In this document: positions 5,195 to 63,579 of the stretch, piece after piece
Layout: every line of letters begins with the position of its first letter
Numbering within the stretch: position 1 is the stretch's first letter
Assembly: GCA_964560005.1 (NCBI GenBank)
Contig: CAZLKB010000001.1
Span: 13,079 to 77,078, forward strand
Reading direction: 5' to 3'
DNA from: an uncultured Gammaproteobacteria bacterium
GTDB taxonomy: Bacteria; Patescibacteriota; Patescibacteriia; Patescibacteriales; GWC2-42-12
DNA length: 64,000 nt
The notes under the pieces: generated by a model
What the model was told of the DNA's origin: nothing
Seen by the model: only the letters and a program-made list of their open reading frames with translations
The model's database searches: none
Translations under genes and position numbers: made by a program

Positions 5195-6622
5195 TTAATA
5201 CCTTAATAACAACAAAAGCTCTATCTCTTTGGAAATTTTCTCGGCCAGTCTTTTATCGTAGCCTAAACCCTGCTCTTTTATCGGCAGATCAAGCAATTTT
5301 TTAAACTCGTCTCTGCCGATGCGATTGGCCAGCCGGTCAAAAATTACTGTTGACAATTTGTCCAAAGCCTCCTGACTGAAATTTAATTCCAGCCGGGCGT
5401 TAACGTAGCCGGCCAATTCCCGGGCGCTTTTATCTTTATCGGCGAAATCTATCTTGCCGGCCTGATGAACCAGCTGCTTGACATTGTCGGAAAATTTCCT
5501 GGCCAAGCGCTTGTCCCAGCCGGCTCCGCCCTTCTCTGTCGGTAAATCCAATTGTTCATAAAAATCATGAAATCCGTCCTTAAAATACAAGAAACTCTCC
5601 ACTTTTTTGATCGCCCTTTCAATTTGATCGTGCGTCATGGTAAAAAACAGGTGGGAAAAAATCTGCTGGGCTTTAAACGGCATTAATAAATTGCCGACCC
5701 GGCTGGACGACATGCCTTTAAACGACTGGATTAAAAGCCGCAAATCGGTCGGGATATACTCTCCCTTAATAAAATCCTCCCTAACTTTTCCGTCTTTAAA
5801 AATATAACTGTCCACCTGGTGCGCCTTAACGGCTTTATACTCAATTTTGACTATTTTTCCATCCAGCATATAAACGATCTTGTTGCCGTATTGCAAATGG
5901 GCAGGATCGTGCGTGACTAAAATGATGGTCTTTTTGTCTATTTCGTTTAGCTCTTTGAAAATCGTCATGACCACATGAGAGGACTTGGAATCCAAATTCC
6001 CCACCGGTTCGTCGGCTAAAATAATCTCGGGATTATTGATTAAAGATCTGATGACGGCGACGCGCTGTTTTTGGCCGCCGGAAAGCTCGGACGGAAATTT
6101 AACGGCTTGATCCAAAATATTATAGCGCTTTAACAGCTCTACCGCCGCCGCCTTAACTTCTTTCACCATTTTCCCGCAAAAAATTTTAGGCAAACAGACG
6201 TTTTCCAGGATATTTAAAGTACTGATTAGATAAAACGACTGGAAAATCATGCCGATTTTATGGCGATGGAACCAGGAAATTTCCCGGTTGTTAAAAACGC
6301 TAATGTCTTCCTGGTCCACGATAACTTTGCCGTTGGTGGGTTTTTGCAGGCCGGCGATGGAATATAAAAGAGTTGACTTGCCGCAGCCCGAGGGGCCGAA
6401 AATAACCACATATTCTTGGGGATAAATTTCTAAATTTATCCCGTCCAGCGACCTGGTTTCGTTGGCTTTGCCCTGATTATAAATTACATCCACATCTTTT
6501 ATTATAATATTGGCTGGCTGGCGCGGCTTTGTCTCGGCCGCCGCCTCGGGAACGGCGCTGGCTGGCTCCTGGGGCGCGGTAATTGTCGCGTTGGGAATAT
6601 TATTTTGAGTCTGATTCTCCAT
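5195..6622 (-). CDS. ABC transporter ATP-binding protein (MacB/LolD-like) with a ~250-aa C-terminal extension
   Basis: Walker A GPSGCGKSTLL, signature LSGGQKQRVAV and Walker B ILADEPVGNLD are present. The track start at 6661 is a TTG, so I prefer ATG at 6622 (MENQTQ). The extension holds two copies of a LDLP-x-E-x-G-x-G-x-DKRLA-x-K motif. Confidence 0.85.
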   Translation of the reverse strand: MENQTQNNIPNATITAPQEPASAVPEAAAETKPRQPANIIIKDVDVIYNQGKANETRSLDGINLEIYPQEYVVIFGPSGCGKSTLLYSIAGLQKPTNGKVIVDQEDISVFNNREISWFHRHKIGMIFQSFYLISTLNILENVCLPKIFCGKMVKEVKAAAVELLKRYNILDQAVKFPSELSGGQKQRVAVIRSLINNPEIILADEPVGNLDSKSSHVVMTIFKELNEIDKKTIILVTHDPAHLQYGNKIVYMLDGKIVKIEYKAVKAHQVDSYIFKDGKVREDFIKGEYIPTDLRLLIQSFKGMSSSRVGNLLMPFKAQQIFSHLFFTMTHDQIERAIKKVESFLYFKDGFHDFYEQLDLPTEKGGAGWDKRLARKFSDNVKQLVHQAGKIDFADKDKSARELAGYVNARLELNFSQEALDKLSTVIFDRLANRIGRDEFKKLLDLPIKEQGLGYDKRLAEKISKEIELLLLLRY

Positions 6623-8547: not shown

Positions 8548-9744
8548 TCACTTTACTAAAAATAAACCGCTAATCTTCTTTATATACTTCTCCCGATACT
8601 CCTCTCTCCTGTCATTGGCATGAAATTTTAAAACCTGATCGCTGATTACCACGCGAGTATCGCGGTTCATCAGCTCGGTTAAAATTTTCGGCAGCAACCT
8701 CAGCTGTAAAGCTTTAAACCAGGGTTCCAGGCCGCCGAAAAACATATCTGCCAACTCGTAATAAAATTTCCCCGGAGCTCTGCCGGCGTCGCGCCGCCTT
8801 GACCAATGTCCGGCCTGTTCGCCCGCCGGCTTGTCCGCCAAATCCGTCAGCTGACGGAGTAAAGCGGACCGATTAGGCAGGCAACCGTTCAGCCAGCTGT
8901 TGACTCCGATAAATTTTTCGTAAACCCCCTCCTGCTGATAAAATGGCGTTAACCCGGCCAGCCAATAAATAAAATATATATCTTCCTTATTAACCCCCTT
9001 TTCGGCCCAAGGCCGATCCTTGCCTACCGGACAAGCAGGCGCCTCGGGTGGAAACGTGGGGTTGGGGAGATTTTCCTCTTTTGCCCCCTTGATAAAGGCT
9101 CGTCTCGCCGTAGCGTAGCCGGGGCGGAGGGATGAAGGGGGATTATTTTTTGTTTGTAGCATCAAGGCGCCTAAATCCAGAGCCTCTTCACTGATAAAAA
9201 AACTCAAACAAATTTTATCTTTAAATTTGCCTAAACCCGGCCTTAAGCCAAGCATCTTAACTAGCGCGACACAGCAGAATCGCGTCAGCCAGATTCTCTT
9301 AGCTTGAGTAATTATAAATAAATCAATATCTCCCTCTTCTTTTAAATTATGGCTGCCCATTAAATTTCCCAGCGCGATCATTTTTATCCAAGGAATCAAT
9401 TTAAAAAGTCTAGCGACTTTAAGGGCGCGTTTAAATTTTCTGTCGGTTACATTATAACGAGCCAGCCGCACCTTAAGGATAGCTTCGCGCCCGGCCAAAA
9501 AATAAAAACCGTTTTTTTGTTCAACGATATTCTTTCCCCCTTGATAAAGCGGGACAAAGGGGGATTTTCCAATGAGAGCATCTAGTTCTTTGACCACTTC
9601 AAAAAAACCGCACTTTAAACCCAGTCCCTGCCAGATCTCAAAAGCAGTCAAGGGAAAGTCAAACATATCAAAATAGGCAACCGTTTTCACGATTGCCTCC
9701 CTAATATTTAAAAATTGTTCGGAATTAATATCTTTAAAGCGCAT
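8548..9744 (-). CDS. nucleotidyltransferase-fold (Pol-beta superfamily) domain protein, hypothetical
   Basis: [21 protein letters not shown] fits the G-S...D-x-D nucleotidyltransferase motif. The track start at 9798 lies in repeat sequence ([18 protein letters not shown]), so I prefer ATG at 9744 (MRFKDIN). The gene contains GC-rich palindromic in-frame insertions. Confidence 0.5.
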
Positions 9745-9750
9745 GTTTAT

Positions 9751-9960
9751 GATGTAAAATGTAAATCTCAAAATGTAAAATGACAATTTAAAATACAAAA
9801 TAAAAATTCTAAATTCTAATATCTAAATTCTAAATAAAAAGTAATGAATATTGGTTTTTTATTTGAAATTTAGATATTGGAATTTGTTTGGATTTTAGGA
9901 TTTATAATTTTAAATTTTTCATTGTCATTTTACATTTTGAGATTTACATTTTACATTTTA
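9751..9960. repeat. nested inverted repeat: 'TGTAAAA' arms enclosing 'CTAAATT' arms
   Basis: Outer arms GATGTAAAATGTAAATCTCAAAATGTAAAATGACAAT / ATTGTCATTTTACATTTTGAGATTTACATTTTACAT. Inner arms AATTCTAAATTCTAATATCTAAATTCTAAAT / ATTTGAAATTTAGATATTGGAATTT. Confidence 0.9.
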
Positions 9961-10030
9961 TTTTTCCTAGAGCTAACCTCTAAGTTTAATTCAAACTCGC
10001 AATGGCAAAAAATTGGCAAACTAAAAAAGT

Positions 10031-11128: not shown

Positions 11129-11245
11129 AAATTGAGCTGATTTTTATATGATTACAAAGATGTTTTTAATAATTTTAGTTTAACAATTAAAATTGATTAG
11201 CGCAACTGCCATGCCACCCCCTTTATTAAAGGGGCCAAACTAATC

Positions 11246-11274
11246 TTGACTCCTAACTAAAAATATACTAAAAT
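11246..11274 (+). promoter_or_regulatory. sigma70-like promoter of pilin cassette 1
   Basis: TTGACT (11246-11251), an exactly 17-nt spacer, then TAAAAT (11269-11274). An almost identical copy lies at 12318..12346. Confidence 0.65.
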
Positions 11275-11280
11275 TTTGCC

Positions 11281-11389
11281 AGCATCAATTAAGACGCCTG
11301 ATTTGGCCGGTGGCCGAATCGGGTTGCTAAAAGCAAGGGTAAAAACCTACTCGGTCTTGATTGATTTAGGAGAGAAAGTTTAAAAATTA
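11281..11389 (+). promoter_or_regulatory. conserved structured 5' leader of pilin cassette 1 (candidate cis-regulatory RNA)
   Basis: CAATTAAGAC (leader 5' end) can pair with GTCTTGATTG just before the SD AGGAGAG. This long-range pairing encloses two hairpins: CCTGATT..GGCC-GGT-GGCC..AATCGGG and TTGC-TAAAA-GCAA. A near-identical leader lies at 12353..12457. Confidence 0.5.
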
Positions 11390-12028
11390 ATGAAAACAAA
11401 AACGGCAGAAAATCCCGGATTCACCTTGGTGGAAATCATGATAGTCGTCGCGATCCTCGGCCTGCTCGCCGCCATCGTCGCCCCCAACTTCGTCCGGGCG
11501 CGCTTAGTCAGCCAAAAAAACGGCTGCATCTTTAATCTTAAAAAGATCGAGATCGCCAAAGCCTCCTTCGTCCTGGACAGGCGAATGGCCGTGGGCATGG
11601 CGGTGTCTATGGATGACCTCTACAGCACGAATCGGCCGGTTTGCCCGGGCGGCGGCAAGTATTCGCCCGGCCAAGTCGGCGTTAATCCCTCCTGCACTTA
11701 CACGGGGCATGCTCTGGAAGGATCCGAATCTCCGCAAAATCAAGAGGCGCAAGAGATTCGGATTGGAAATGGCAGCTACATCAAGATCGGAAGGATAGCG
11801 ACCGAAAACGGCACCATGAAATTCACCCTTAAGACAATCGAGCGGTTTGAAACCGCCCATCCTGATTTAAAGATCACCGGCCGGCAGGTGGTATTCTCTG
11901 CCTCAAATGTGGTTATGGGAATTTTACTTTGGCATGAGCCGAGAACCCGCGCCATCGCGCTGGAAAAACCGACCCGGCAACGACCCGCGCCTCTCGGAAC
12001 CCGCACCCTCTCGGCGCAAGCCCGCTGA
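11390..12028 (+). CDS. type IV pilin-like protein (prepilin N-terminal cleavage/methylation domain) with a ~100-aa C-terminal extension
   Basis: NPGFTLVEIMIVVAILGLLAAIV is the classic G/FTL-x-E prepilin motif. It is followed by C-x-x-NLKKIE and a C-terminal Cys pair (CPGGGKYSPGQVGVNPSC). GC-richer than the surrounding genes. Confidence 0.8.
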   Translation: MKTKTAENPGFTLVEIMIVVAILGLLAAIVAPNFVRARLVSQKNGCIFNLKKIEIAKASFVLDRRMAVGMAVSMDDLYSTNRPVCPGGGKYSPGQVGVNPSCTYTGHALEGSESPQNQEAQEIRIGNGSYIKIGRIATENGTMKFTLKTIERFETAHPDLKITGRQVVFSASNVVMGILLWHEPRTRAIALEKPTRQRPAPLGTRTLSAQAR

Positions 12029-12050
12029 AAGGTAATCAAAAATTCACTAA

Positions 12051-12086
12051 AGAGCCAGAGAAACTCCCTCCGGCTCTCTTTTTTTA
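12051..12086 (+). terminator. rho-independent terminator of pilin cassette 1
   Basis: The AGAGCC..GGCTCT stem is followed by CTTTTTTTA. A near-identical copy lies at 12843..12877. Confidence 0.7.
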
Positions 12087-12137
12087 TCTTGCAAAGGGGA
12101 AAGCAACCTTTAAAGATTAATTGCCCCCTTTAAGACC

Positions 12138-12300
12138 ACCATGGGGGCTTGGGGGTCCGAGCTGAGCGCCAAGGCGCGTGCGCAAGAATGTCAAAGAAGC
12201 AATAGCGAATTGAGGACCCCCAAAACTTCTTTGGATACTTTCTTAGTTATAAGAAAGTATCCCCTAGCGGAGCGTCGTGAACGAATTAACTGATAAATGG
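12138..12300. repeat. ~165-nt structured repeat, copy a (copies b and c at 29244 and 63617)
   Basis: Sequence ACCAtGGGGcTTGGGGGTCCGAGCTGAGCG...CTAGCGAATTGAGGACCCCC, then a perfect hairpin GGATACTTTCTTAGTTATAAGAAAGTATCC, then CCTAGCGGAGCGTCGTGAACG. Confidence 0.85.
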
Positions 12301-12317
12301 CGGGGTTTTAATGCGCC

Positions 12318-12346
12318 TTGACTCATAACTAATAATGTACTAAAAT
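12318..12346 (+). promoter_or_regulatory. sigma70-like promoter of pilin cassette 2
   Basis: TTGACT (12318-12323), a 17-nt spacer, then TAAAAT (12341-12346). Confidence 0.65.
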
Positions 12347-12352
12347 TTTGCC

Positions 12353-12457
12353 AGAATCAATCAAGGCGCCTGATTTGGCCGGTAGCCGAATCGGGTTGCA
12401 AAAAGCAAGGGTTAAAAACCTAACTCTATCCTGATTGATAAAGGAGAAAAAATCTTT
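12353..12457 (+). promoter_or_regulatory. conserved structured 5' leader of pilin cassette 2
   Basis: My hand alignment of promoter plus leader against copy 1 shows 8 substitutions and one 1-nt indel over about 108 nt. The first 90 coding nt differ at 29 positions. Confidence 0.5.
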
Positions 12458-12823
12458 GTGAAAATAAAAACATCCCGAAGGTACGGCTTCACCCTGGTGG
12501 AGGTAATATTAGTCGCCTTTGTCTTCTGCTTGCTCGCCACCATCCTCTCCGCTCCCTGTTTCTTTAGGGCGCGCGAAACGAGGCAAAAAAACACCTGCAT
12601 CGCCAATCTGCAACAACTGGAAAAGGCAAAAATTGCCTGGGCTGCCGACAACGGGATTACTAATGGTACGCCCATAGACGACCGCTTTTACACCGGTCCG
12701 ATATTTATTCCGAATATTCCCTGCTGTCCGGCTGGCGGCGTATATAGTATTAACCCAATCGGCGTTCCGCCGACCTGCTCCTTAACTAATCTGAGGCATG
12801 TTCTCCCGTTAAAACCGCGATGA
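12458..12823 (+). CDS. type IV pilin-like protein (prepilin N-terminal domain), short paralog
   Basis: GTG start. Motifs YGFTLVEVILVAFVFCLLATIL, C-x-x-NLQQLEKAK and CPAGGVYSINPIGVPPTC parallel the upstream paralog. Confidence 0.75.
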   Translation: MKIKTSRRYGFTLVEVILVAFVFCLLATILSAPCFFRARETRQKNTCIANLQQLEKAKIAWAADNGITNGTPIDDRFYTGPIFIPNIPCCPAGGVYSINPIGVPPTCSLTNLRHVLPLKPR

Positions 12824-12842
12824 ACGGCCAAAAATCCGCCAA

Positions 12843-12877
12843 AGAGCCCGAGACACTCCCTCCGGCTCTCTTTTTTT
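12843..12877 (+). terminator. rho-independent terminator of pilin cassette 2
   Basis: AGAGCCCGAGACACTCCCTCCGGCTCTCTTTTTTT, the same stem and T-run as at 12051. Confidence 0.7.
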
Positions 12878-12936
12878 ATCGCTCGCCTTGCCAAGAACGA
12901 TTTTTTAATCTATAATGAATTGCATTGTTTTAACTT

Positions 12937-29477: not shown

Positions 29478-32400
29478 TTACAAATTTTTTAATTGCTCTC
29501 TAAACTTCTCTAATTCTGCCTGCCACCCCGCTAATTTCTCTTTTTCTTTTTTCACGATCTCGGCCGGCGCATTACTAACGAATTCCTTATTAGCCAGCCT
29601 AGCTTCCGCGGCCTTAATTACTTTTTCCAGATTAACAATTTCCTTTTCCAGTCTGGCCTTCTCTTTGGCTTTATCCACGGCTCCAACCAAATATATTTCT
29701 ATATCGCCAACGGCCGCGTAAATCGCGCCGGCAATTTTCTCTCCTTTAGTTTTAATTTCTAACTCACTAATGCCGGTGCGTAAACTTTTTATTAAGTGCG
29801 CCTGCTCGGTTATTAATTTTTTCCGCTTACCCGCATAAATCACCGCTTTAACTTTCTGCCCTGGCTCAACTTTATTTTCCGCGCGCGCGTTGCGGATAGC
29901 GACAATAATCTCTTTCACCACCTCAAACTCTATTTTGTCATTCTGGAGCGAAGCGATAGAATCTGATTTCGGCCATTTCTCCACCATTAAAAAAGTTTTA
30001 TGCCCCATCTTTTGCCAAATTGTTTCCGTCACGAATGGCATAAACGGATGCCAGAGCTTTAATAAATTTTCTAAAACATAATTTAATATCCGGCTCTTTT
30101 CTTCATTTTTTTCAAACTTGCTGGCCTCTAAATACCAATCGGCTAAATCATCCCAGGTGAATTCGCGCAAACTCTCCCCGGCCTGCGAAAAACTATAACT
30201 TTCCAAATCTTCGGTTACTTTCTTTATTAACTCTTCCATTTTTCCCAATATCCACCTGTCCGATATTGTTAGATTCTTTAAGTTTAATTCATTATTCATG
30301 ATTCGTGATTCATGATTCGTGATTATATAACGCGCCACGTTCCACAGCTTATTGGTAAAATTCCTGAAACTGGCGATTTTATCTTCGCTATATTTGGCGT
30401 CGTTGCCCGGCGTATTGCCCATTAACAGCGATAAGCGAACCGCGTCGGTGCCGAATTTATCAATCATCTCCAGCGGGTCAATGCCGTTGCCTTTTGATTT
30501 GCTCATTTTCTTGCCGTTCTTATCCAGTATCATGCCGTGCAGATATACTTTTTCGAACGGAATTTCGTTTAAGGCGTAAAAAGACATGATAATCATGCGC
30601 GACACCCAGAGGGTAATTATTTCATAGCCGGTTTCTAAGACCTGCGTGGGATGAAACCTGGCTAAATCACCCGATTTTTTGCCTTTAACATAATTATCCG
30701 GCCAGCCCAAAGTGGAGAAGGTCCAGGTGCCGGAAGAAAACCAGGTGTCTAAAGTATCTTCATCTTGAACCCAAAAATCTTTTTTCAATTCATTTAATAT
30801 ATCTTGGCATTCATCGCTATTAAAATGCGAGGCGGAATTTTCAACTTTAATTATTTTCGCGTCTAGCGCAACGGCTATTTCAGCAACCTCTTCCGCAGTG
30901 ACTGCGTGATCCTCTCCGGCTTGAAAGATTACTATTTCTCCGACATTTTCTTTTATTTTCTTAAAATCGTATTTATAATTTTTATACTCTATTAACTCCT
31001 TCTTTTTTGTTCTTAGGGAAGGAGCCAGCATGACCAGCTTTTTTATTTTTAAATTACTGCTCTGTATTATTTTTAACGCTAAGGCACTGCCTAATGAATG
31101 CGTCACTATAATGGAATTTTTATCTATTTTAGCACTAGCCAAGACAAACTTTTCCTGCTCATCGCGATTAGGTTTATCCGGATTGGGCAAGATCTGCCAA
31201 AAATTTTCTTGATTCGGCAATTGCTTGTTTAACCAATTTAACGGGTCCTTTACATCTCTGGTACGATAAAAACCGTGCAAAAAAACAAAATTAGAATTCT
31301 GCGGCGCTTCCGCGCCGACATAAATTTCTTGGTCCTTATCTTCTAACTTCTTACTTCTACCTTCTGCCTTCTTATACCAAACCGGTATCCTATGCCCGAA
31401 CCAAAGCTGGCGCGAAACACACCAATCGTGCAGATTATTCATCCAGTCCAGATACCTTTTTTTGAATCTCTCCGGGATAAATTCGATCTTTCCGTCAGCG
31501 GCCGCCGCGATGGCTTTTTCCTTTAGCGACTTTCCACCCAAACGTTTCAATTTCTTGTCCACGTCCACGAACCATTGCTTTGACGGTATAGGTTCGATTT
31601 GCGTGCCGCAGCGGTAGCATAACGCGATATTATGCAGATAGCCGTCTTCAATATGGTCAAGCAAACCCATTTTTTCCATGTCGGCCAAAATCGCCTCCCG
31701 CGCTTCTTTAGTGGTCAAACCGGCGTATTTACCCGTATTGGCCATCATCCGGCCTTGTTCATTTATGACTTGCTTCATGGCCAGATTATGCCTTTGGGCA
31801 ATTTGATAATCCGTAAAGTCATGGGCCGGCGTAACTTTAATCGCGCCTGAGCCGAATTTAGGATCAACCGCCCGGTCGGCCACCACGATAATTTCAAATT
31901 CACCCAGCACGCCCGGTATTTTATATTTCTTGCCCACCATTTTCTCGTAGCGCTTATCTCCCGGGTAAACTGCCACGGCCGTATCGCCCAATTTTGTTTC
32001 CGGACGAGAAGTGGCCAAAACGAATGGACCGTATTTCAGCCAATACAATTTGCCTTTTTCTTCTTTATATTCCACCTCGTCATCGGCTAAAGTGGACTGG
32101 CACCTGGGGCACCAATTTACCACCCTGACTCCGCGATAAATCACGCCTTCGTCATACATATCCACAAACAGCTTTTTCACTGCCTTGGCCCGCGGCTCAT
32201 CCAAGGTAAAGGCCTGGCGCGACCAATCCAAAGACGCGCCCATCTTTCTGGTCTGGCGCAAAATCGTAGCCTGGGTCTCCCGCAAAAATTGCCAAACCCT
32301 TTTTAAAAATTCTTCTCGACCTAAATCGTGGCGCGTTTTTTTCTCTTCCTGCCACAATTTTTTTTCCACCACGTACTGCGTAGCGATGGGCGCGTGGTCC

Positions 32401-32657
32401 GTGCCCGGAATCCAAAGAGCACGTTCGCCCTTCATCCGATGATAACGAATCAGTAAGTCTTCTATGGCCAGCATGGCCGAATGCCCCAGATGCAATTTAT
32501 CCGTAATGTTGGGTGGAGGCAGAACTATGGTGTACGGTTTGGCCGTTTTAGGCAAGCCTAAGTTATCCGGATTAAAAAATCCCGACTTTTCCCACTTTTC
32601 ATAAACGCCGTCTTCGTATTCGGCCGGATTATATATTTTCGGCAATTCTACAGACAT
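29478..32657 (-). CDS. valS: valyl-tRNA synthetase with a nested alpha/beta serine-hydrolase domain
   Basis: PNITDKLHLGHS (HIGH), the CP1 editing domain, WCVSRQLWFGHRIPVWY, QDEDTLDTWFSS, KMSKSKGN and a C-terminal coiled coil. A 202-aa segment separates VWY from QDEDT, where only a short peptide is expected. Confidence 0.95.
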   Translation of the reverse strand: MSVELPKIYNPAEYEDGVYEKWEKSGFFNPDNLGLPKTAKPYTIVLPPPNITDKLHLGHSAMLAIEDLLIRYHRMKGERALWIPGTDHAPIATQYVVEKKLWQEEKKTRHDLGREEFLKRVWQFLRETQATILRQTRKMGASLDWSRQAFTLDEPRAKAVKKLFVDMYDEGVIYRGVRVVNWCPRCQSTLADDEVEYKEEKGKLYWLKYGPFVLATSRPETKLGDTAVAVYPGDKRYEKMVGKKYKIPGVLGEFEIIVVADRAVDPKFGSGAIKVTPAHDFTDYQIAQRHNLAMKQVINEQGRMMANTGKYAGLTTKEAREAILADMEKMGLLDHIEDGYLHNIALCYRCGTQIEPIPSKQWFVDVDKKLKRLGGKSLKEKAIAAAADGKIEFIPERFKKRYLDWMNNLHDWCVSRQLWFGHRIPVWYKKAEGRSKKLEDKDQEIYVGAEAPQNSNFVFLHGFYRTRDVKDPLNWLNKQLPNQENFWQILPNPDKPNRDEQEKFVLASAKIDKNSIIVTHSLGSALALKIIQSSNLKIKKLVMLAPSLRTKKKELIEYKNYKYDFKKIKENVGEIVIFQAGEDHAVTAEEVAEIAVALDAKIIKVENSASHFNSDECQDILNELKKDFWVQDEDTLDTWFSSGTWTFSTLGWPDNYVKGKKSGDLARFHPTQVLETGYEIITLWVSRMIIMSFYALNEIPFEKVYLHGMILDKNGKKMSKSKGNGIDPLEMIDKFGTDAVRLSLLMGNTPGNDAKYSEDKIASFRNFTNKLWNVARYIITNHESRIMNNELNLKNLTISDRWILGKMEELIKKVTEDLESYSFSQAGESLREFTWDDLADWYLEASKFEKNEEKSRILNYVLENLLKLWHPFMPFVTETIWQKMGHKTFLMVEKWPKSDSIASLQNDKIEFEVVKEIIVAIRNARAENKVEPGQKVKAVIYAGKRKKLITEQAHLIKSLRTGISELEIKTKGEKIAGAIYAAVGDIEIYLVGAVDKAKEKARLEKEIVNLEKVIKAAEARLANKEFVSNAPAEIVKKEKEKLAGWQAELEKFREQLKNL
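30774..31298 (-). other. inserted YdeN/RBBP9-like serine-hydrolase domain inside valS
   Basis: FVFLHGF, LPNPDKPNRDE, IIVTHSLGS (Ser codon 31095-31097), FQAGEDHAV (Asp 30909-30911) and SASHFN (His 30825-30827). Confidence 0.7.
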
Positions 32658-60630: not shown

Positions 60631-63579
60631 CTAACTTCCGGTTTTTCTGGCCGCTCTAATAAACAACCCTATTAATACGATTATAACCGCTCCGGCTATT
60701 ATCAATAAATATTTAAATAACTCTATTTTTTTATCCCGCTCGGCGATCGCCCACTCTCCGGACGAAGCCACTTCGCCTAAGACTTGAGGCTCTAGCCCGC
60801 CTGCCGGCGAGGCGGGCCCGCCGGCATCGCCTGCTTTAATAATATCATCTTCAGAGCGCGGCATCAGCCTCAACCCTGTTGAAGTCTTACCTAAGATGCC
60901 GGTTACCGAAACCGCCTGACCGGGCGTTAAATTTTTTGTGCTAATGCCGGCGGCCTGCTTAATGTATATTAAAATTTCACCGCTGCCGTCGTCTAAATAA
61001 AGTGTCGAGCTTTTTTTGTCCGTGATTTCGCCGCTGACGCGAAGCAATTGTCCGATATTTTCTTCGTTCACCTGGTCGCAGCTTAGCTCTAGAGCCGGCG
61101 GAGGCGCTCCATGCTCTTTTACTGCCATATCGCTCTTTGCCTTGGTTTTTATTCTGGCTTCGCCTTGAGTTTGCGCCAGCTCTCCCGAAACCTCTAAATA
61201 ATCGCCTACCGTAAGCGCGGGAAAATCTTTTTTATAATTATAAACTTGCAGGCCGGTGGAAGAGCTTACGACATAAAAAACCTGCGTGCCTAAAATACCG
61301 GGCAAAACCGCCACCGTGCCTTTAACTTTTACCAAGCTGGCGATCTCCAGCTCCTTGGCCTGTTCCAAAGATGCCTCTGTATAATCAGCCTCCTCAACCC
61401 TAGCGCTCGAGACGCTGCTTAAAACAATCGCGCTCTTGCTGCCGGCTAGGCTGATTATATTGTCCCGGCCAGGCGTCAGTTTAGTAGTCCAAAACCACTT
61501 GCCGTTTTCACCCCGCGCGTAAGCCTCGCCTTGAACCGCCTCGCTGTACTCCACCCGATCAATCAGCTCGTCTAAATCATTATATAAGCTGATGACGTCC
61601 GAACTGTTCTTAAACGCCAATTTGCTAACCGTATTGGTTAACAGATAGAAATCGTCCTCCTCCAGCCAGGCATCATTTTTAAATTTATACCTGCCATTGC
61701 TATTTTCTAAACGCCAATTTGCTAAATTTAACTTTTCCGCGCCCTGATTTTTTAATTCCGCCATTTCTTGCCCCGTATCCGCGCCCGCCGGATCGGGAAA
61801 AATTTCGTTAATAATTATGCCGCCTTCACCCCCTTTCAAAAGGGGGGTGCGGGGGGTTACCGCACTTAAGCCAGTCGCCTCGCCACTTAACTCGCCGACA
61901 TTATTTGCCACTTTCACGCTTTTCACTTTTTCCGCGGTTGTCTGGCTGTCGCTCACTGCCAGCCTGACCTCATAAATGCCGGCCTTAAAAAAAGTGTGTT
62001 CCGGATTGGCTAGAATGTTTTTGAAGCCGTCGCCAAAATCCCAGGCATATTTCAACCGAGCGCCATCGGGCGCACCCGTGTCCGAACTGTCGAAAACCGC
62101 CGGCTGGCCGGTTAGAATATTCTCCGGAAAACTAAATTCAACTTCAATCACCCGGCTAGCCGCTTGGGTTTGTACCACATTAACCGCCCCAGGCGTCGGC
62201 AACTCACTCCACTGCCATTCAGTATTTACATTATTCGCTAAATTCGCTTTCAATTCGCTTAAATTAGTTTTGACATAGCTCCAGCCCTCTTTAACATTCT
62301 TATACGCCACGGTTTGCGCCGGCTTATCGGCCAGGGGCTGGAATAATCTAACTTCCCCCTGGTCATTATGTAAAACTATTTTCGTTCTTGGCCGAAAAAA
62401 GGCTAAATATTCGCCGGCTCTGATTAAAGTACCGGTAGCAATTTTTTCCAAATTTACTTTTTTTTCATCTTCATTACTTAAGCTCCAACCGGTTAAATTG
62501 ACCTCTCGCGCGCCCGCATTATATATTTCAATGAATTCCAGTTTGGCGTCGTCGCCGGCCGGATTGGGCAGCAATTCGGAAAGATAGATGTCGTTAGAAA
62601 AATCAAATCCGGCCCTAGCTTCTTGGCTGACCTCATCTTCCGCTTGAATCAGATTGCTTGAACCCTTGGTCGGTTCAAGAGTAACGGCGAAATCGTTGGC
62701 GTTATTAAAAGTATTATAGCCGTCAAATTTTCTGGCCAGGCTCTCGGGGTCGTGAGCGACTGGAGCATTATCCGATAAATTTCCGTCAGGCCAGTTGCCA
62801 TAAACCACTTGGTCAATAATTTTCCCGGCTGAATCATGTAAAACTATAAGATCGCCGCTGTTATTTAAATTACCCGACGGCTTGTCAATTATCTTGTAAC
62901 GGTTTAAGTCACTCAAACCCAAACTGCCGGTCAGATTAGTTTTCGCCTTACTGCCGTCTTCAAGCCACCAACCGGTTAAATCAATCTCTTGGCTGGTTTT
63001 ATTATATAATTCTATCCACTCAACCTCGTTATCCGCCGGGTCGGAGACGAATTCGTTTATTAATACATCGCCAAGATTATTGGTCCCCTTTGACAAAGAT
63101 GGGCCTGCCTGCGCAGGCAGGCTGGGGGGATTTTCCACATCGCCAGTCGAAGTAGCCGTCTGGTCCGGCGGCGGAGTAATAACCACTGTTTCTACGGTAC
63201 AACCCGAGCTGCAGCCGTCGCCATCGGTTAAATTCCCGTCATCGCAGCCTTCGCCCGCTTCTAGCGCCGCGTTGCCGCAAACCGGCAGAGCGGCATCGCC
63301 GCCTACGGTGATTAAATCTTTAAGGCTATCAAAAGTGGCTTGCTTTATACCGGTGACATTCATTATGTCTTCAATTTTTTGGAATAGTCCTACGCTGGCG
63401 CGATAATTTATTATCTCCTGGGCTTTAGCCGGGCCGATTCCCGGCAAAGTATCCAGTTCTTCTACGGTTGCGGTATTTATATTTATTAATCCAACCGCTT
63501 CAATTTCTTGGGTACAAAAAAATCCCGCGGTCATGATCGCCAGGATTATAAAAAAAACCCACCCTCCTTGTTTTAGCAT
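60631..63579 (-). CDS. large surface protein: ComEA-type HhH + Cys-rich repeat + three lamin-tail domains + PKD domain + OB-fold-like region + C-terminal TM anchor
   Basis: The HhH region is NTATVEELDTLPGIGPAKAQEIINYR and the Cys-rich repeat is CGNAALEAGEGCDDGNLTDGDGCSSGC. LTD-like motifs occur three times (LINEFVSDPADNEVEWIELYN...LTGWWL; LSELLPNPAGDD..EFIEIYN; IINEIFPDPAG). The PKD region reads YAWDFGDG...EHTFFKAGIYEVRLAVSD. The C-terminal TM segment is LLIIAGAVIIVLIGLFI. Confidence 0.75.
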   Translation of the reverse strand: MLKQGGWVFFIILAIMTAGFFCTQEIEAVGLININTATVEELDTLPGIGPAKAQEIINYRASVGLFQKIEDIMNVTGIKQATFDSLKDLITVGGDAALPVCGNAALEAGEGCDDGNLTDGDGCSSGCTVETVVITPPPDQTATSTGDVENPPSLPAQAGPSLSKGTNNLGDVLINEFVSDPADNEVEWIELYNKTSQEIDLTGWWLEDGSKAKTNLTGSLGLSDLNRYKIIDKPSGNLNNSGDLIVLHDSAGKIIDQVVYGNWPDGNLSDNAPVAHDPESLARKFDGYNTFNNANDFAVTLEPTKGSSNLIQAEDEVSQEARAGFDFSNDIYLSELLPNPAGDDAKLEFIEIYNAGAREVNLTGWSLSNEDEKKVNLEKIATGTLIRAGEYLAFFRPRTKIVLHNDQGEVRLFQPLADKPAQTVAYKNVKEGWSYVKTNLSELKANLANNVNTEWQWSELPTPGAVNVVQTQAASRVIEVEFSFPENILTGQPAVFDSSDTGAPDGARLKYAWDFGDGFKNILANPEHTFFKAGIYEVRLAVSDSQTTAEKVKSVKVANNVGELSGEATGLSAVTPRTPLLKGGEGGIIINEIFPDPAGADTGQEMAELKNQGAEKLNLANWRLENSNGRYKFKNDAWLEEDDFYLLTNTVSKLAFKNSSDVISLYNDLDELIDRVEYSEAVQGEAYARGENGKWFWTTKLTPGRDNIISLAGSKSAIVLSSVSSARVEEADYTEASLEQAKELEIASLVKVKGTVAVLPGILGTQVFYVVSSSTGLQVYNYKKDFPALTVGDYLEVSGELAQTQGEARIKTKAKSDMAVKEHGAPPPALELSCDQVNEENIGQLLRVSGEITDKKSSTLYLDDGSGEILIYIKQAAGISTKNLTPGQAVSVTGILGKTSTGLRLMPRSEDDIIKAGDAGGPASPAGGLEPQVLGEVASSGEWAIAERDKKIELFKYLLIIAGAVIIVLIGLFIRAARKTGS

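Follow-up and report, generated by a model that had tools for sequence, protein, structure and literature searches.

A probable structured leader RNA on hypervariable pilin cassettes at the rmuC-uvrA site of Falkowbacteria-like Patescibacteria

Patescibacteria make up a large share of bacterial diversity and rely on type IV pili to contact hosts, to move and to take up DNA. In other bacteria pilin genes can be under riboswitch control, as with the c-di-GMP-II element that precedes pilA1 in Clostridioides difficile. Structures at the 5' terminus, together with ribosome binding, stabilise mRNAs such as those of ompA and aprE (for review see PMC3997798). In a cultivated Patescibacterium, the small major pilins are the most highly expressed of the pilus genes (PMC11623550). 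Here, two adjacent pilin-like genes and the leader RNAs that precede them are described from a 64,000-nucleotide (nt) stretch of the 299-kb contig CAZLKB010000001.1 (assembly GCA_964560005.1), which is called the window. Run SRR12133404 contains an identical contig. Each gene is a self-contained expression cassette, comprising a strong sigma70-type promoter, a 5' untranslated region (UTR) of ~100 nt, a Shine-Dalgarno sequence (SD), the coding sequence (CDS) and an intrinsic terminator. The leader is a real structured 5'-UTR motif that is absent from Rfam 15, is found so far in a narrow clade of Patescibacteria and is carried by hypervariable pilin cassettes. On the strength of sequence comparison, it is very likely a conserved, structured RNA that acts in cis.

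A preliminary description of the window, made from its letters, held that the promoter, leader and terminator of the two pilin-like genes are better conserved than the genes themselves, and this observation is confirmed. As it had stated, the same TTGACT-N17-TAAAAT promoter stands before both genes (positions in Table 1). Between the predicted transcription start and the end of the closing helix P1, which is described below, the leaders differ by the 8 substitutions reported earlier and by two 1-nt indels instead of one. A repeat finder returns 11245-11345 against 12317-12417 at 91% identity over 101 nt, and the 3' blocks of the two cassettes share 47 of 52 positions (90%). The shared terminator proposed earlier is thus present: both blocks fold as AGAGCC.GAG/CUC.GGCUCU followed by a U run, at -13 kcal/mol. 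The strong divergence of the CDS is upheld as well, with 28 differing positions counted in the first 90 coding nt, not 29. The two CDS are 60% identical in DNA (dS ~1.0, dN 0.48), compared with a leader divergence of ~10%. Within the first 31 codons, 14 residues are identical between the cassette 1 and cassette 2 products, and five of these 14 are specified by a different codon.

The similarity begins at the -35 box, runs to just past the terminator T run and goes no further; the 60 nt upstream of the -35 box are just 40% identical. The spacer and the outer flanks of the cassettes are unrelated (40–48% identity) and blastn gives no match between flanks. A uniform similarity through the flanking DNA, which the preliminary description had named as the sign of a very recent segmental duplication, is therefore not what is seen. 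Such a duplication, too young to have diverged, would produce two adjacent copies in the same orientation, as observed. It is refuted by the CDS divergence given above, by the unrelated spacer and flanks, and by the restriction of the similarity to functional non-coding parts, so that its probability is negligible. No further copy of the leader core is present in the window, where 0 chance matches are expected.

Both leaders are predicted to fold into a four-helix junction of ~82–85 nt. Here, the closing helix P1 (12 bp) encloses three hairpins, namely P2 (12 bp), P3 (4 bp) and P4 (5–7 bp). The minimum free energy (MFE) is -42.2 kcal/mol for cassette 1 and -36.8 kcal/mol for cassette 2, corresponding to z = -5.0 and -4.0 relative to dinucleotide shuffles. 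The MFE calculation backs the leader fold sketched in the preliminary description, whose list of helices was incomplete: the fourth helix, P4 (GGGUA/UACUC), has been added. The two indels jointly add one U-A pair to P4, changing GGGUA/UACUC to GGGUUA/UAACUC. One substitution does convert a U-G to a C-G pair, at the inner end of P1, where P1 of cassette 2 also has two non-pairs. The differences do not lie mostly in loops, as had been thought, since just two of the eight substitutions are in hairpin loops and four are at the inner end of P1.

The junction leaves 0–1 unpaired nt per strand. The internal loop of P2 and the terminal loops L2 and L4 vary freely. P1 and P3 (UUGC-AAAA-GCAA) keep their sequence and not just their pairing, and P2 is the least sequence-conserved helix. 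The SD follows P1 at a distance of 2–3 nt and is for the most part single-stranded in the predicted ensemble (mean unpaired probability 0.83 in cassette 1), so that the earlier proposal that the main fold sequesters the SD is not borne out. In cassette 1, the stretch from the SD to the ATG, which holds a 6-nt insertion when compared with cassette 2, is long for an SD. Transcription of cassette 1 is predicted from the promoter consensus to start at ~11280-11283. As the -10 box ends 9 nt before P1, the predicted 5' tail ahead of the junction is ~1–4 nt. Two further features were considered and rejected: a small open reading frame (ORF) within the leader, since candidate ORFs differ among genomes and the substitutions follow base pairing; and a contact between L2 and L4, whose three-nt complementarity, seen by eye in four of six leaders, is too likely by chance.

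As the preliminary description had anticipated, the leader has further homologues. Trained on the two window copies (W1 and W2, for cassettes 1 and 2), a covariance model finds four more leaders, two in the relative L022 and one each in L023 and L027 (E = 1e-8 to 1e-15, 40–65 bits). All six belong to the rmuC-uvrA locus, each with a promoter before it and a pilin-type ORF after it. When rebuilt from the six leaders, which come from four genomes, the model gives them sense-strand scores of 78–106 bits; no antisense score exceeds 18.5 bits, and there is no other match in the ~190 kb of sequence examined. Transcription of the leader in the predicted orientation is supported indirectly, by this asymmetry and by where the promoter lies.

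The helices are supported by compensatory changes in P1, P2 and P4, as the earlier reading of the fold required. Standard pairs fill 89.7% of cells in the alignment, compared with 21–48% when the partners are slid by 1–3 columns. Changes on both sides occur in nine of 31 pairs, a number reached by one of 500 shuffles (shuffle mean 3.9), and the covariation score of 0.271 is reached by none of the 500 (shuffle mean 0.175). For example, P4 is GGGU/ACUC in the window, GGGC/GCCC in L022A (one of the two L022 cassettes) and GGCU/AGCC in L023. From the six leaders RNAalifold predicts P1 to P4 again; when given a structure-blind MAFFT alignment, it still finds P1 and P2 with four compensated pairs. 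The MFE fold of each relative's leader contains P1, P2 and P4. The leader is selected as RNA, its helices being kept by compensatory and wobble changes, and on the sense strand only.

The distances between these genomes are considerable. Between them, uvrA has dS ~1.2, pS ~0.6 and dN ~0.1, which places synonymous sites near saturation, and the leaders are 64–73% identical. The uvrA gene also supplies a measure of what non-coding conservation means in this clade. Its promoter, TTGCCA-N17-TA(T/C)AAT, together with the spacer CGATTTTTT and the first ~20 transcribed nt, is conserved in all four genomes, the orthologous promoters of L022, L023 and L027 being conserved to a degree similar to that of the cassette promoter, spacer included. 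It follows that functional intergenic DNA evolves far more slowly here than synonymous sites do and that conservation of the cassette promoter, taken alone, is not unusual. The cassette promoter is common to all six cassettes, including a spacer motif TAATAAT.

The strand asymmetry also bears on a DNA-level element, in which the inverted repeats would be a transcription-factor operator or an attC-like site of recombination that folds as single-stranded DNA. This would suit a tandem cassette array of variable length at one site, the sequence-conserved inverted repeats formed by the P1 arms and the conserved promoter spacer. However, the helices depend on G-U pairs, the sense and antisense scores are far apart, and in P2 the pairing is kept and the sequence is not. 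The uvrA promoter is equally conserved in its spacer, the cassettes occur at only one locus in the DNA examined, and no integrase or recombinase is found by Pfam among ORFs of at least 120 amino acids (aa) in the window. A DNA-level element is therefore considered very improbable. An integron-like array was rejected in turn, as the cassettes carry promoters, the folded element belongs to the sense strand and stands at their 5' end, and the same Pfam search gives no integrase.

Recombination offers another explanation, in which gene conversion or allele swapping alone keeps promoter, leader and terminator alike and the RNA fold has no function. The W1 and W2 leaders are indeed far more alike than their CDS predict. 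Variation among the four other leaders is found in 64 alignment columns. W1 and W2 can be compared at 60 of these and agree at 50 (83%), while other leader pairs agree at 39–46% of those columns. In protein, the W1 pilin shares 43% identity with W2 and 45% with the pilin of L023. Because the leaders are so similar and the W1 pilin is no closer to W2 than to that of L023, flanks and CDS must have different histories. This points to homogenisation of the W1 and W2 flanks by gene conversion, or to replacement of the CDS by recombination within conserved flanks. The terminator sequence is conserved too, the number of cassettes at the site is 0, 1 or 2 among relatives, and passages in PMC10187176 and PMC11665869 describe Patescibacteria as naturally competent and recombining.

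Recombination alone is nevertheless improbable, as it explains neither the conservation of the leader between genomes whose uvrA synonymous sites are near saturation nor the compensatory changes in the four helices, and it leaves the strand asymmetry unaccounted for. Furthermore, the two L022 leaders have not been homogenised, being 64% identical overall and agreeing at 39% of the variable columns. Recombination is thus a contributing process and not the whole explanation. The alternative raised in the preliminary description, gene conversion or cassette behaviour, is retained in this sense. A system of the pilE/pilS type is rejected: each cassette starts from a promoter and closes with a terminator of its own, which leaves no silent copies. 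The conserved frame of promoter, leader and terminator might provide homology arms for the swapping of pilin alleles in competent cells.

The suggestion of a constrained cis-regulatory RNA accordingly stands in part. A constrained RNA with homologues, covariation and strand specificity is present; identity with a known riboswitch and sequestration of the SD by the main fold are not supported. None of the six leaders matches an Rfam 15 family. At gathering thresholds, only two tRNAs are found in the window; under permissive settings, nothing overlaps the window leaders at E <= 10 or the relatives' leaders at E <= 5. The permissive matches obtained elsewhere lie inside coding DNA or the terminator only and were dismissed as implausible. 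Searches of GTDB genomes and JGI metagenomes with an exact pattern of the P2 core returned only chance matches in GC-rich coding DNA; because P2 is the least sequence-conserved helix, its core makes a poor search pattern. A three-anchor pattern applied to viral contigs gave 48 loci, none of which fits the covariance model. A literature search found no report of an RNA motif upstream of Patescibacteria pilin genes.

As to function, the reading ranked first is that the junction is a constitutive stabiliser of the mRNA that also exposes the SD, a proposal modelled from the predicted folds and held tentatively, with confidence a little short of even. The four-helix junction would act in cis on the pilin mRNA, and a stable structure at the 5' terminus would shield a very highly expressed message from decay initiated at the 5' end. 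At the same time, the junction would keep the 3' strand of P1, UC(C/U)UGA, paired; if free, this strand could pair with the SD region UUAGGA. The 5' strand of P1 would thus be an SD mimic, and with P1 formed the ribosome-binding site would be open, making expression ON by default. The alternative UCCUGA/UUAGGA hairpin of 6 bp is possible in five of the six leaders at -3 to -6 kcal/mol. It cannot coexist with P1, whose energy is -7 to -13 kcal/mol. Folded without the 5' half, four of the six leaders show the SD hairpin in their MFE structure.

The same elements could be assembled into a regulated translational switch responding to a ligand, a protein or a small RNA, which is thought unlikely but is the strongest of the rivals. 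Here, the junction would be the sensor and P1 an anti-anti-SD: with P1 blocked or cleaved, its 3' strand UCCUGA would pair with the SD UUAGGA and translation of the pilin would stop. Consistent with a switch, the SD mimic in the 5' strand of P1 (AUUAGGA in L023), the anti-SD in the 3' strand and the SD itself are all present in five of six leaders. The emergence of the SD hairpin in the truncated leaders, the conservation of P1 and P3 in sequence besides pairing, and the riboswitch control of pilin genes in other bacteria also favour it. Conversely, P1 is 4–8 kcal/mol more stable than the alternative hairpin and is transcribed first, and the alternative helix does no better than shuffles in covariation. 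The junction has almost no unpaired nt from which to build a pocket, the conserved unpaired nt typical of ligand pockets are missing, and the P2 internal loop, L2 and L4 are free to vary. Finally, no Rfam family matches even at E <= 10 and there is no expression platform of the terminator type. More specifically, and rather less probably still, the junction could be the sensor of a new, Patescibacteria-specific translational switch in which a ligand, protein or RNase decides whether P1 forms; where it does not, its 3' strand would mask the SD, and a protein in this role could report pilin load or host contact.

Several points weigh against the stabiliser with an open SD and against the RNA evidence on which it builds. 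The set comprises six leaders from four genomes, two of them near-duplicates, and the counts were made on an alignment that had been fitted to the model. The fold z-scores of the four relatives' leaders are modest (-1.6 to -2.4). Across the six leaders, the anti-SD/SD hairpin shows no covariation beyond that of shuffles. The start site, and hence the 5'-terminal placement of the junction, is predicted from the promoter consensus. In cassette 1 the SD is 17 nt from the start codon, and the L027 cassette has no good SD. In addition, a stabiliser needs just a simple hairpin, and the four-way junction with its conserved P3 and P1 sequence suggests specific recognition. What we infer about stabilisation and exposure of the SD is consequently the weaker part of the account, compared with the claim of a conserved structured RNA.

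The cassettes occupy a fixed site between rmuC and uvrA in a clade of Falkowbacteria-like Patescibacteria, and their pilin CDS have diverged almost to saturation. The best named matches of the window UvrA are from Patescibacteria and Candidatus Falkowbacteria (at most 84% identity), and the host is a Patescibacterium, probably related to Falkowbacteria. The gene order rmuC(-)/cassette site/uvrA(+) is kept in the relatives, with zero, one or two cassettes (Table 1). Each of the two window cassettes and the four in relatives is equipped separately with a promoter, an SD, a start codon and a terminator. The terminators of all six are homologous, consisting of AGAGCCAGAG...CUCCGGCUCU and a U run (-13 to -16 kcal/mol, then 5–8 U), and this motif occurs nowhere else in the DNA examined.

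Table 1. Coordinates of the cassette features in the window and occupancy of the rmuC-uvrA site in related contigs
Feature	Position (strand)	Description	Basis or remark
Cassette 1 promoter	11246..11274 (+)	-35 TTGACT 11246-11251, 17-nt spacer, -10 TAAAAT 11269-11274	consensus scan 10/12
Cassette 1 leader RNA	11278..11376 (+)	predicted four-helix junction	MFE; covariance-model match 103.7-117.5 bits; covariation over 6 leaders
Cassette 1 helices		P1 11284-11295/11354-11365; P2 11297-11308/11312-11323; P3 11324-11327/11333-11336; P4 11337-11341/11348-11352	
Cassette 1 SD-like AGGAG	11368..11372 (+)	3 nt past P1, 17 nt ahead of ATG	read from sequence
Pilin-like gene 1	11390..12028 (+)	212 aa, ATG start	prepilin signal MKTKTAENP/GFTLVE (slash, cleavage site)
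Cassette 1 3' block	12037..12088 (+)	intrinsic terminator, stem 12051-12077, T run 12079-12085	
Inter-cassette spacer	12089..12317 (.)	229 nt	palindromes 12233-12262 and 12149-12223
Cassette 2 promoter	12318..12346 (+)	TTGACT-N17-TAAAAT	consensus scan 10/12
Cassette 2 leader RNA	12350..12450 (+)		MFE; covariance-model match 106-119 bits
Cassette 2 helices		P1 12356-12367/12428-12439; P2 12369-12380/12384-12395; P3 12396-12399/12405-12408; P4 from 12409	
Cassette 2 SD AGGAG	12442..12446 (+)	11 nt ahead of GTG start codon	read from sequence
Pilin-like gene 2	12458..12823 (+)	121 aa, GTG start	prepilin signal MKIKTSRRY/GFTLVE
Cassette 2 3' block	12829..12880 (+)	intrinsic terminator, stem ~12843-12869, T run 12871-12877	
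uvrA promoter	12888..12916 (+)	TTGCCA-N17-TATAAT	consensus scan 11/12; fixed right-hand border of the cassette site
L022 (GCA_028707005.1)		two cassettes between rmuC and uvrA	
L023		one cassette between rmuC and uvrA	identical leader match in L024 and L025
L027 (GCA_030650415.1)		one cassette between rmuC and uvrA	
Contig of P0135, closest UvrA relative		no cassette; rmuC and uvrA ~150 nt apart	from gene calls
Contig of P0139		no cassette; rmuC and uvrA ~170 nt apart	from gene calls
L076		a different gene, on the minus strand, between rmuC and uvrA	

Small repeats and hairpins are found around the site. The inter-cassette spacer contains a perfect 13-bp palindrome (GGATACTTTCTTA-GTTA-TAAGAAAGTATCC, 12233-12262) and a long hairpin (12149-12223); its fold has z = -2.7 and it matches no Rfam family. 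In L022 this spacer is nearly missing, which suggests an insertion. The single cassettes of L023 and L027 are preceded by a short motif, (T)GGCAAAGGGG, that forms a small hairpin (L023 8985-9000, L027 4990-5007). It is resembled by TTGCAAAGGGG in the window (12086-12130), after cassette 1 and upstream of cassette 2, and motifs of this type may be remnants of the original border of the duplicated unit. In the relatives, the cassette site and the uvrA promoter are flanked by palindromic repeats of the form GTCATTGCGAG...CGAAGCAATCTC (L022 ~2120-2330, L023 ~9010-9140 and 9800-10020, L027 ~5700-5810), with tandem copies in L027. They look like a family of small repeated elements, and none was seen in the window between rmuC and uvrA.

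The neighbours of the cassettes in the window are housekeeping genes. They encode a pair of MacB/FtsX-type ABC transporter proteins, a Wzy_C protein, RmuC, UvrA, UvrB and UvrC, with several tRNA synthetases, GyrA and FtsK among the further genes. No pilus machinery is found by Pfam among window ORFs of at least 120 aa. Two other genes of the window are recorded as observations in their own right. The first (60631-63579, minus strand) encodes a 982-aa ComEA-like protein with HHH_3 and HHH motifs, three lamin-tail domains, a PKD domain and an OB fold, and is a candidate extracellular DNA-binding protein for competence. The second (29478-32657, minus strand) encodes a valyl-tRNA synthetase with a serine-hydrolase domain, PF06821, inserted at residues 461–616.

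Both cassette products have the N-terminal features of type IV pilins. They exceed the cut-offs of PF07963 (28.6 and 23.2 bits for genes 1 and 2; cut-off 21.2) and TIGR02532 (30.3 and 21.1 bits; cut-off 16.3), and their N-termini match solved major pilins (PilA and GspG chains). Each has a class III signal, made up of a short basic leader, G/F-T-L-x-E and a hydrophobic helix. Contrary to what was previously supposed, the C-terminal domains are homologous: 118 residues of the two proteins can be aligned, with 43% identity (E = 3e-26). Gene 1 consists of this pilin core of ~118 aa and a C-terminal extension of ~95 residues (residues ~118–212, window 11743-12028), which sits between the core and the conserved terminator block. 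The extension has no detectable relatives, and homologues cover at most 56% of the protein. It could represent an accessory domain or a read-through into inserted DNA. A decayed third pilin, or a repeat of sequence elsewhere in the window, was rejected as its source because tblastn gave no match. A single-sequence AlphaFold model of the gene 1 product has a pLDDT of 38.7 and is unusable beyond the helix.

Among themselves, the cassette pilins are only 27–45% identical in protein. Pilin homologues outside the cassettes are 37–54% identical and are mostly on PVC-type contigs, with some on Omnitrophota-type contigs; the regions upstream of these distant homologues (L003–L006 and L014–L021) contain no related leader. 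The L022A cassette (L022 1179-1412) encodes a degenerate pilin-like product of 77 aa, in which EFSFLDF replaces GFTLVE, and has kept its promoter, leader and terminator; it may be decaying or repurposed. The window genes are GC-richer than their surroundings, as had been noted, but the excess is modest (GC 0.51–0.56 and GC3 0.57–0.66, compared with ~0.44 and 0.5 in the window) and is matched by two other window genes. Horizontal transfer was therefore rejected as an explanation of the GC content, the modest excess being common to all cassettes and to some housekeeping genes.

The motif is compact, with a clear architecture, a defined context and a working covariance model, so that searches through all Patescibacteria genomes and tests in the Saccharibacteria genetic system are feasible. 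If the stabiliser reading is true, the leader would be a ready-made 5' UTR for high expression in the engineering of Patescibacteria. If it is instead a switch, it would couple the synthesis of pilus subunits to a signal and open a route to the signal that controls pilus production, and it would be the first natural class of cis-regulatory RNA defined in the Patescibacteria superphylum. In either case, the locus neatly illustrates how a hypervariable surface gene can sit within an expression frame that is itself conserved, which makes it useful for studies of pilin allele exchange.

In comparison to known systems, the c-di-GMP riboswitches (c-di-GMP-II of C. difficile pilA1 and GEMM-I of Geobacter and Vibrio) are similar in being structured leaders of ~100 nt directly before a type IV pilin gene. 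The pilin leader described here differs in its architecture: it has no Rfam match, no terminator platform and no conserved junction or pseudoknot nt. With the Neisseria pilE/pilS system, the locus shares several pilin copies with conserved ends and variable cores, and gene conversion is implicated in both. Unlike that system, it has no silent promoterless copies, no G4-type initiator was found and there is no sign of programmed switching.

The allele groups of Pseudomonas aeruginosa pilA and the pilA locus of Vibrio cholerae (on PilA diversity see bioRxiv 10.64898/2026.03.17.712343) resemble the cassette site in having a near-saturated pilin CDS at a fixed site between conserved sequences, with a gene content that varies among relatives. 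Here, however, the conserved frame belongs to the gene itself and is made up of its promoter, structured leader and terminator, the cassettes are single or in tandem pairs, and the neighbours are the housekeeping genes rmuC and uvrA, not pilus machinery. A PVC-type contig (L018, 600-1860) provides another likeness, as it carries three tandem small-pilin paralogues, each with its own conserved leader of ~100 nt, GGCAATAcGTGAAC...GTTCACGCCGCAAAAACAGAA. These leaders are unrelated in sequence and do not match the covariance model, and two of them follow clear sigma54-type promoters (TGGCAC-N5-TTGCT) instead of the sigma70 type. Conserved leaders on arrays of pilin paralogues may thus be a wider pattern, realised by unrelated sequences across phyla.

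Lastly, the stabilisers in the 5' UTR of Escherichia coli ompA and the leader stem-loop of Bacillus subtilis aprE (PMC3997798) have no sequence relationship to the pilin leader, which differs from them in its predicted four-helix junction of ~82 nt and its conserved P1 and P3. The likeness lies in the arrangement, that is, a stable structure within a few nt of the predicted 5' end with a strong, accessible SD downstream, and in what such an element would be: a constitutive, cis-acting part of a very abundant mRNA for a surface protein.

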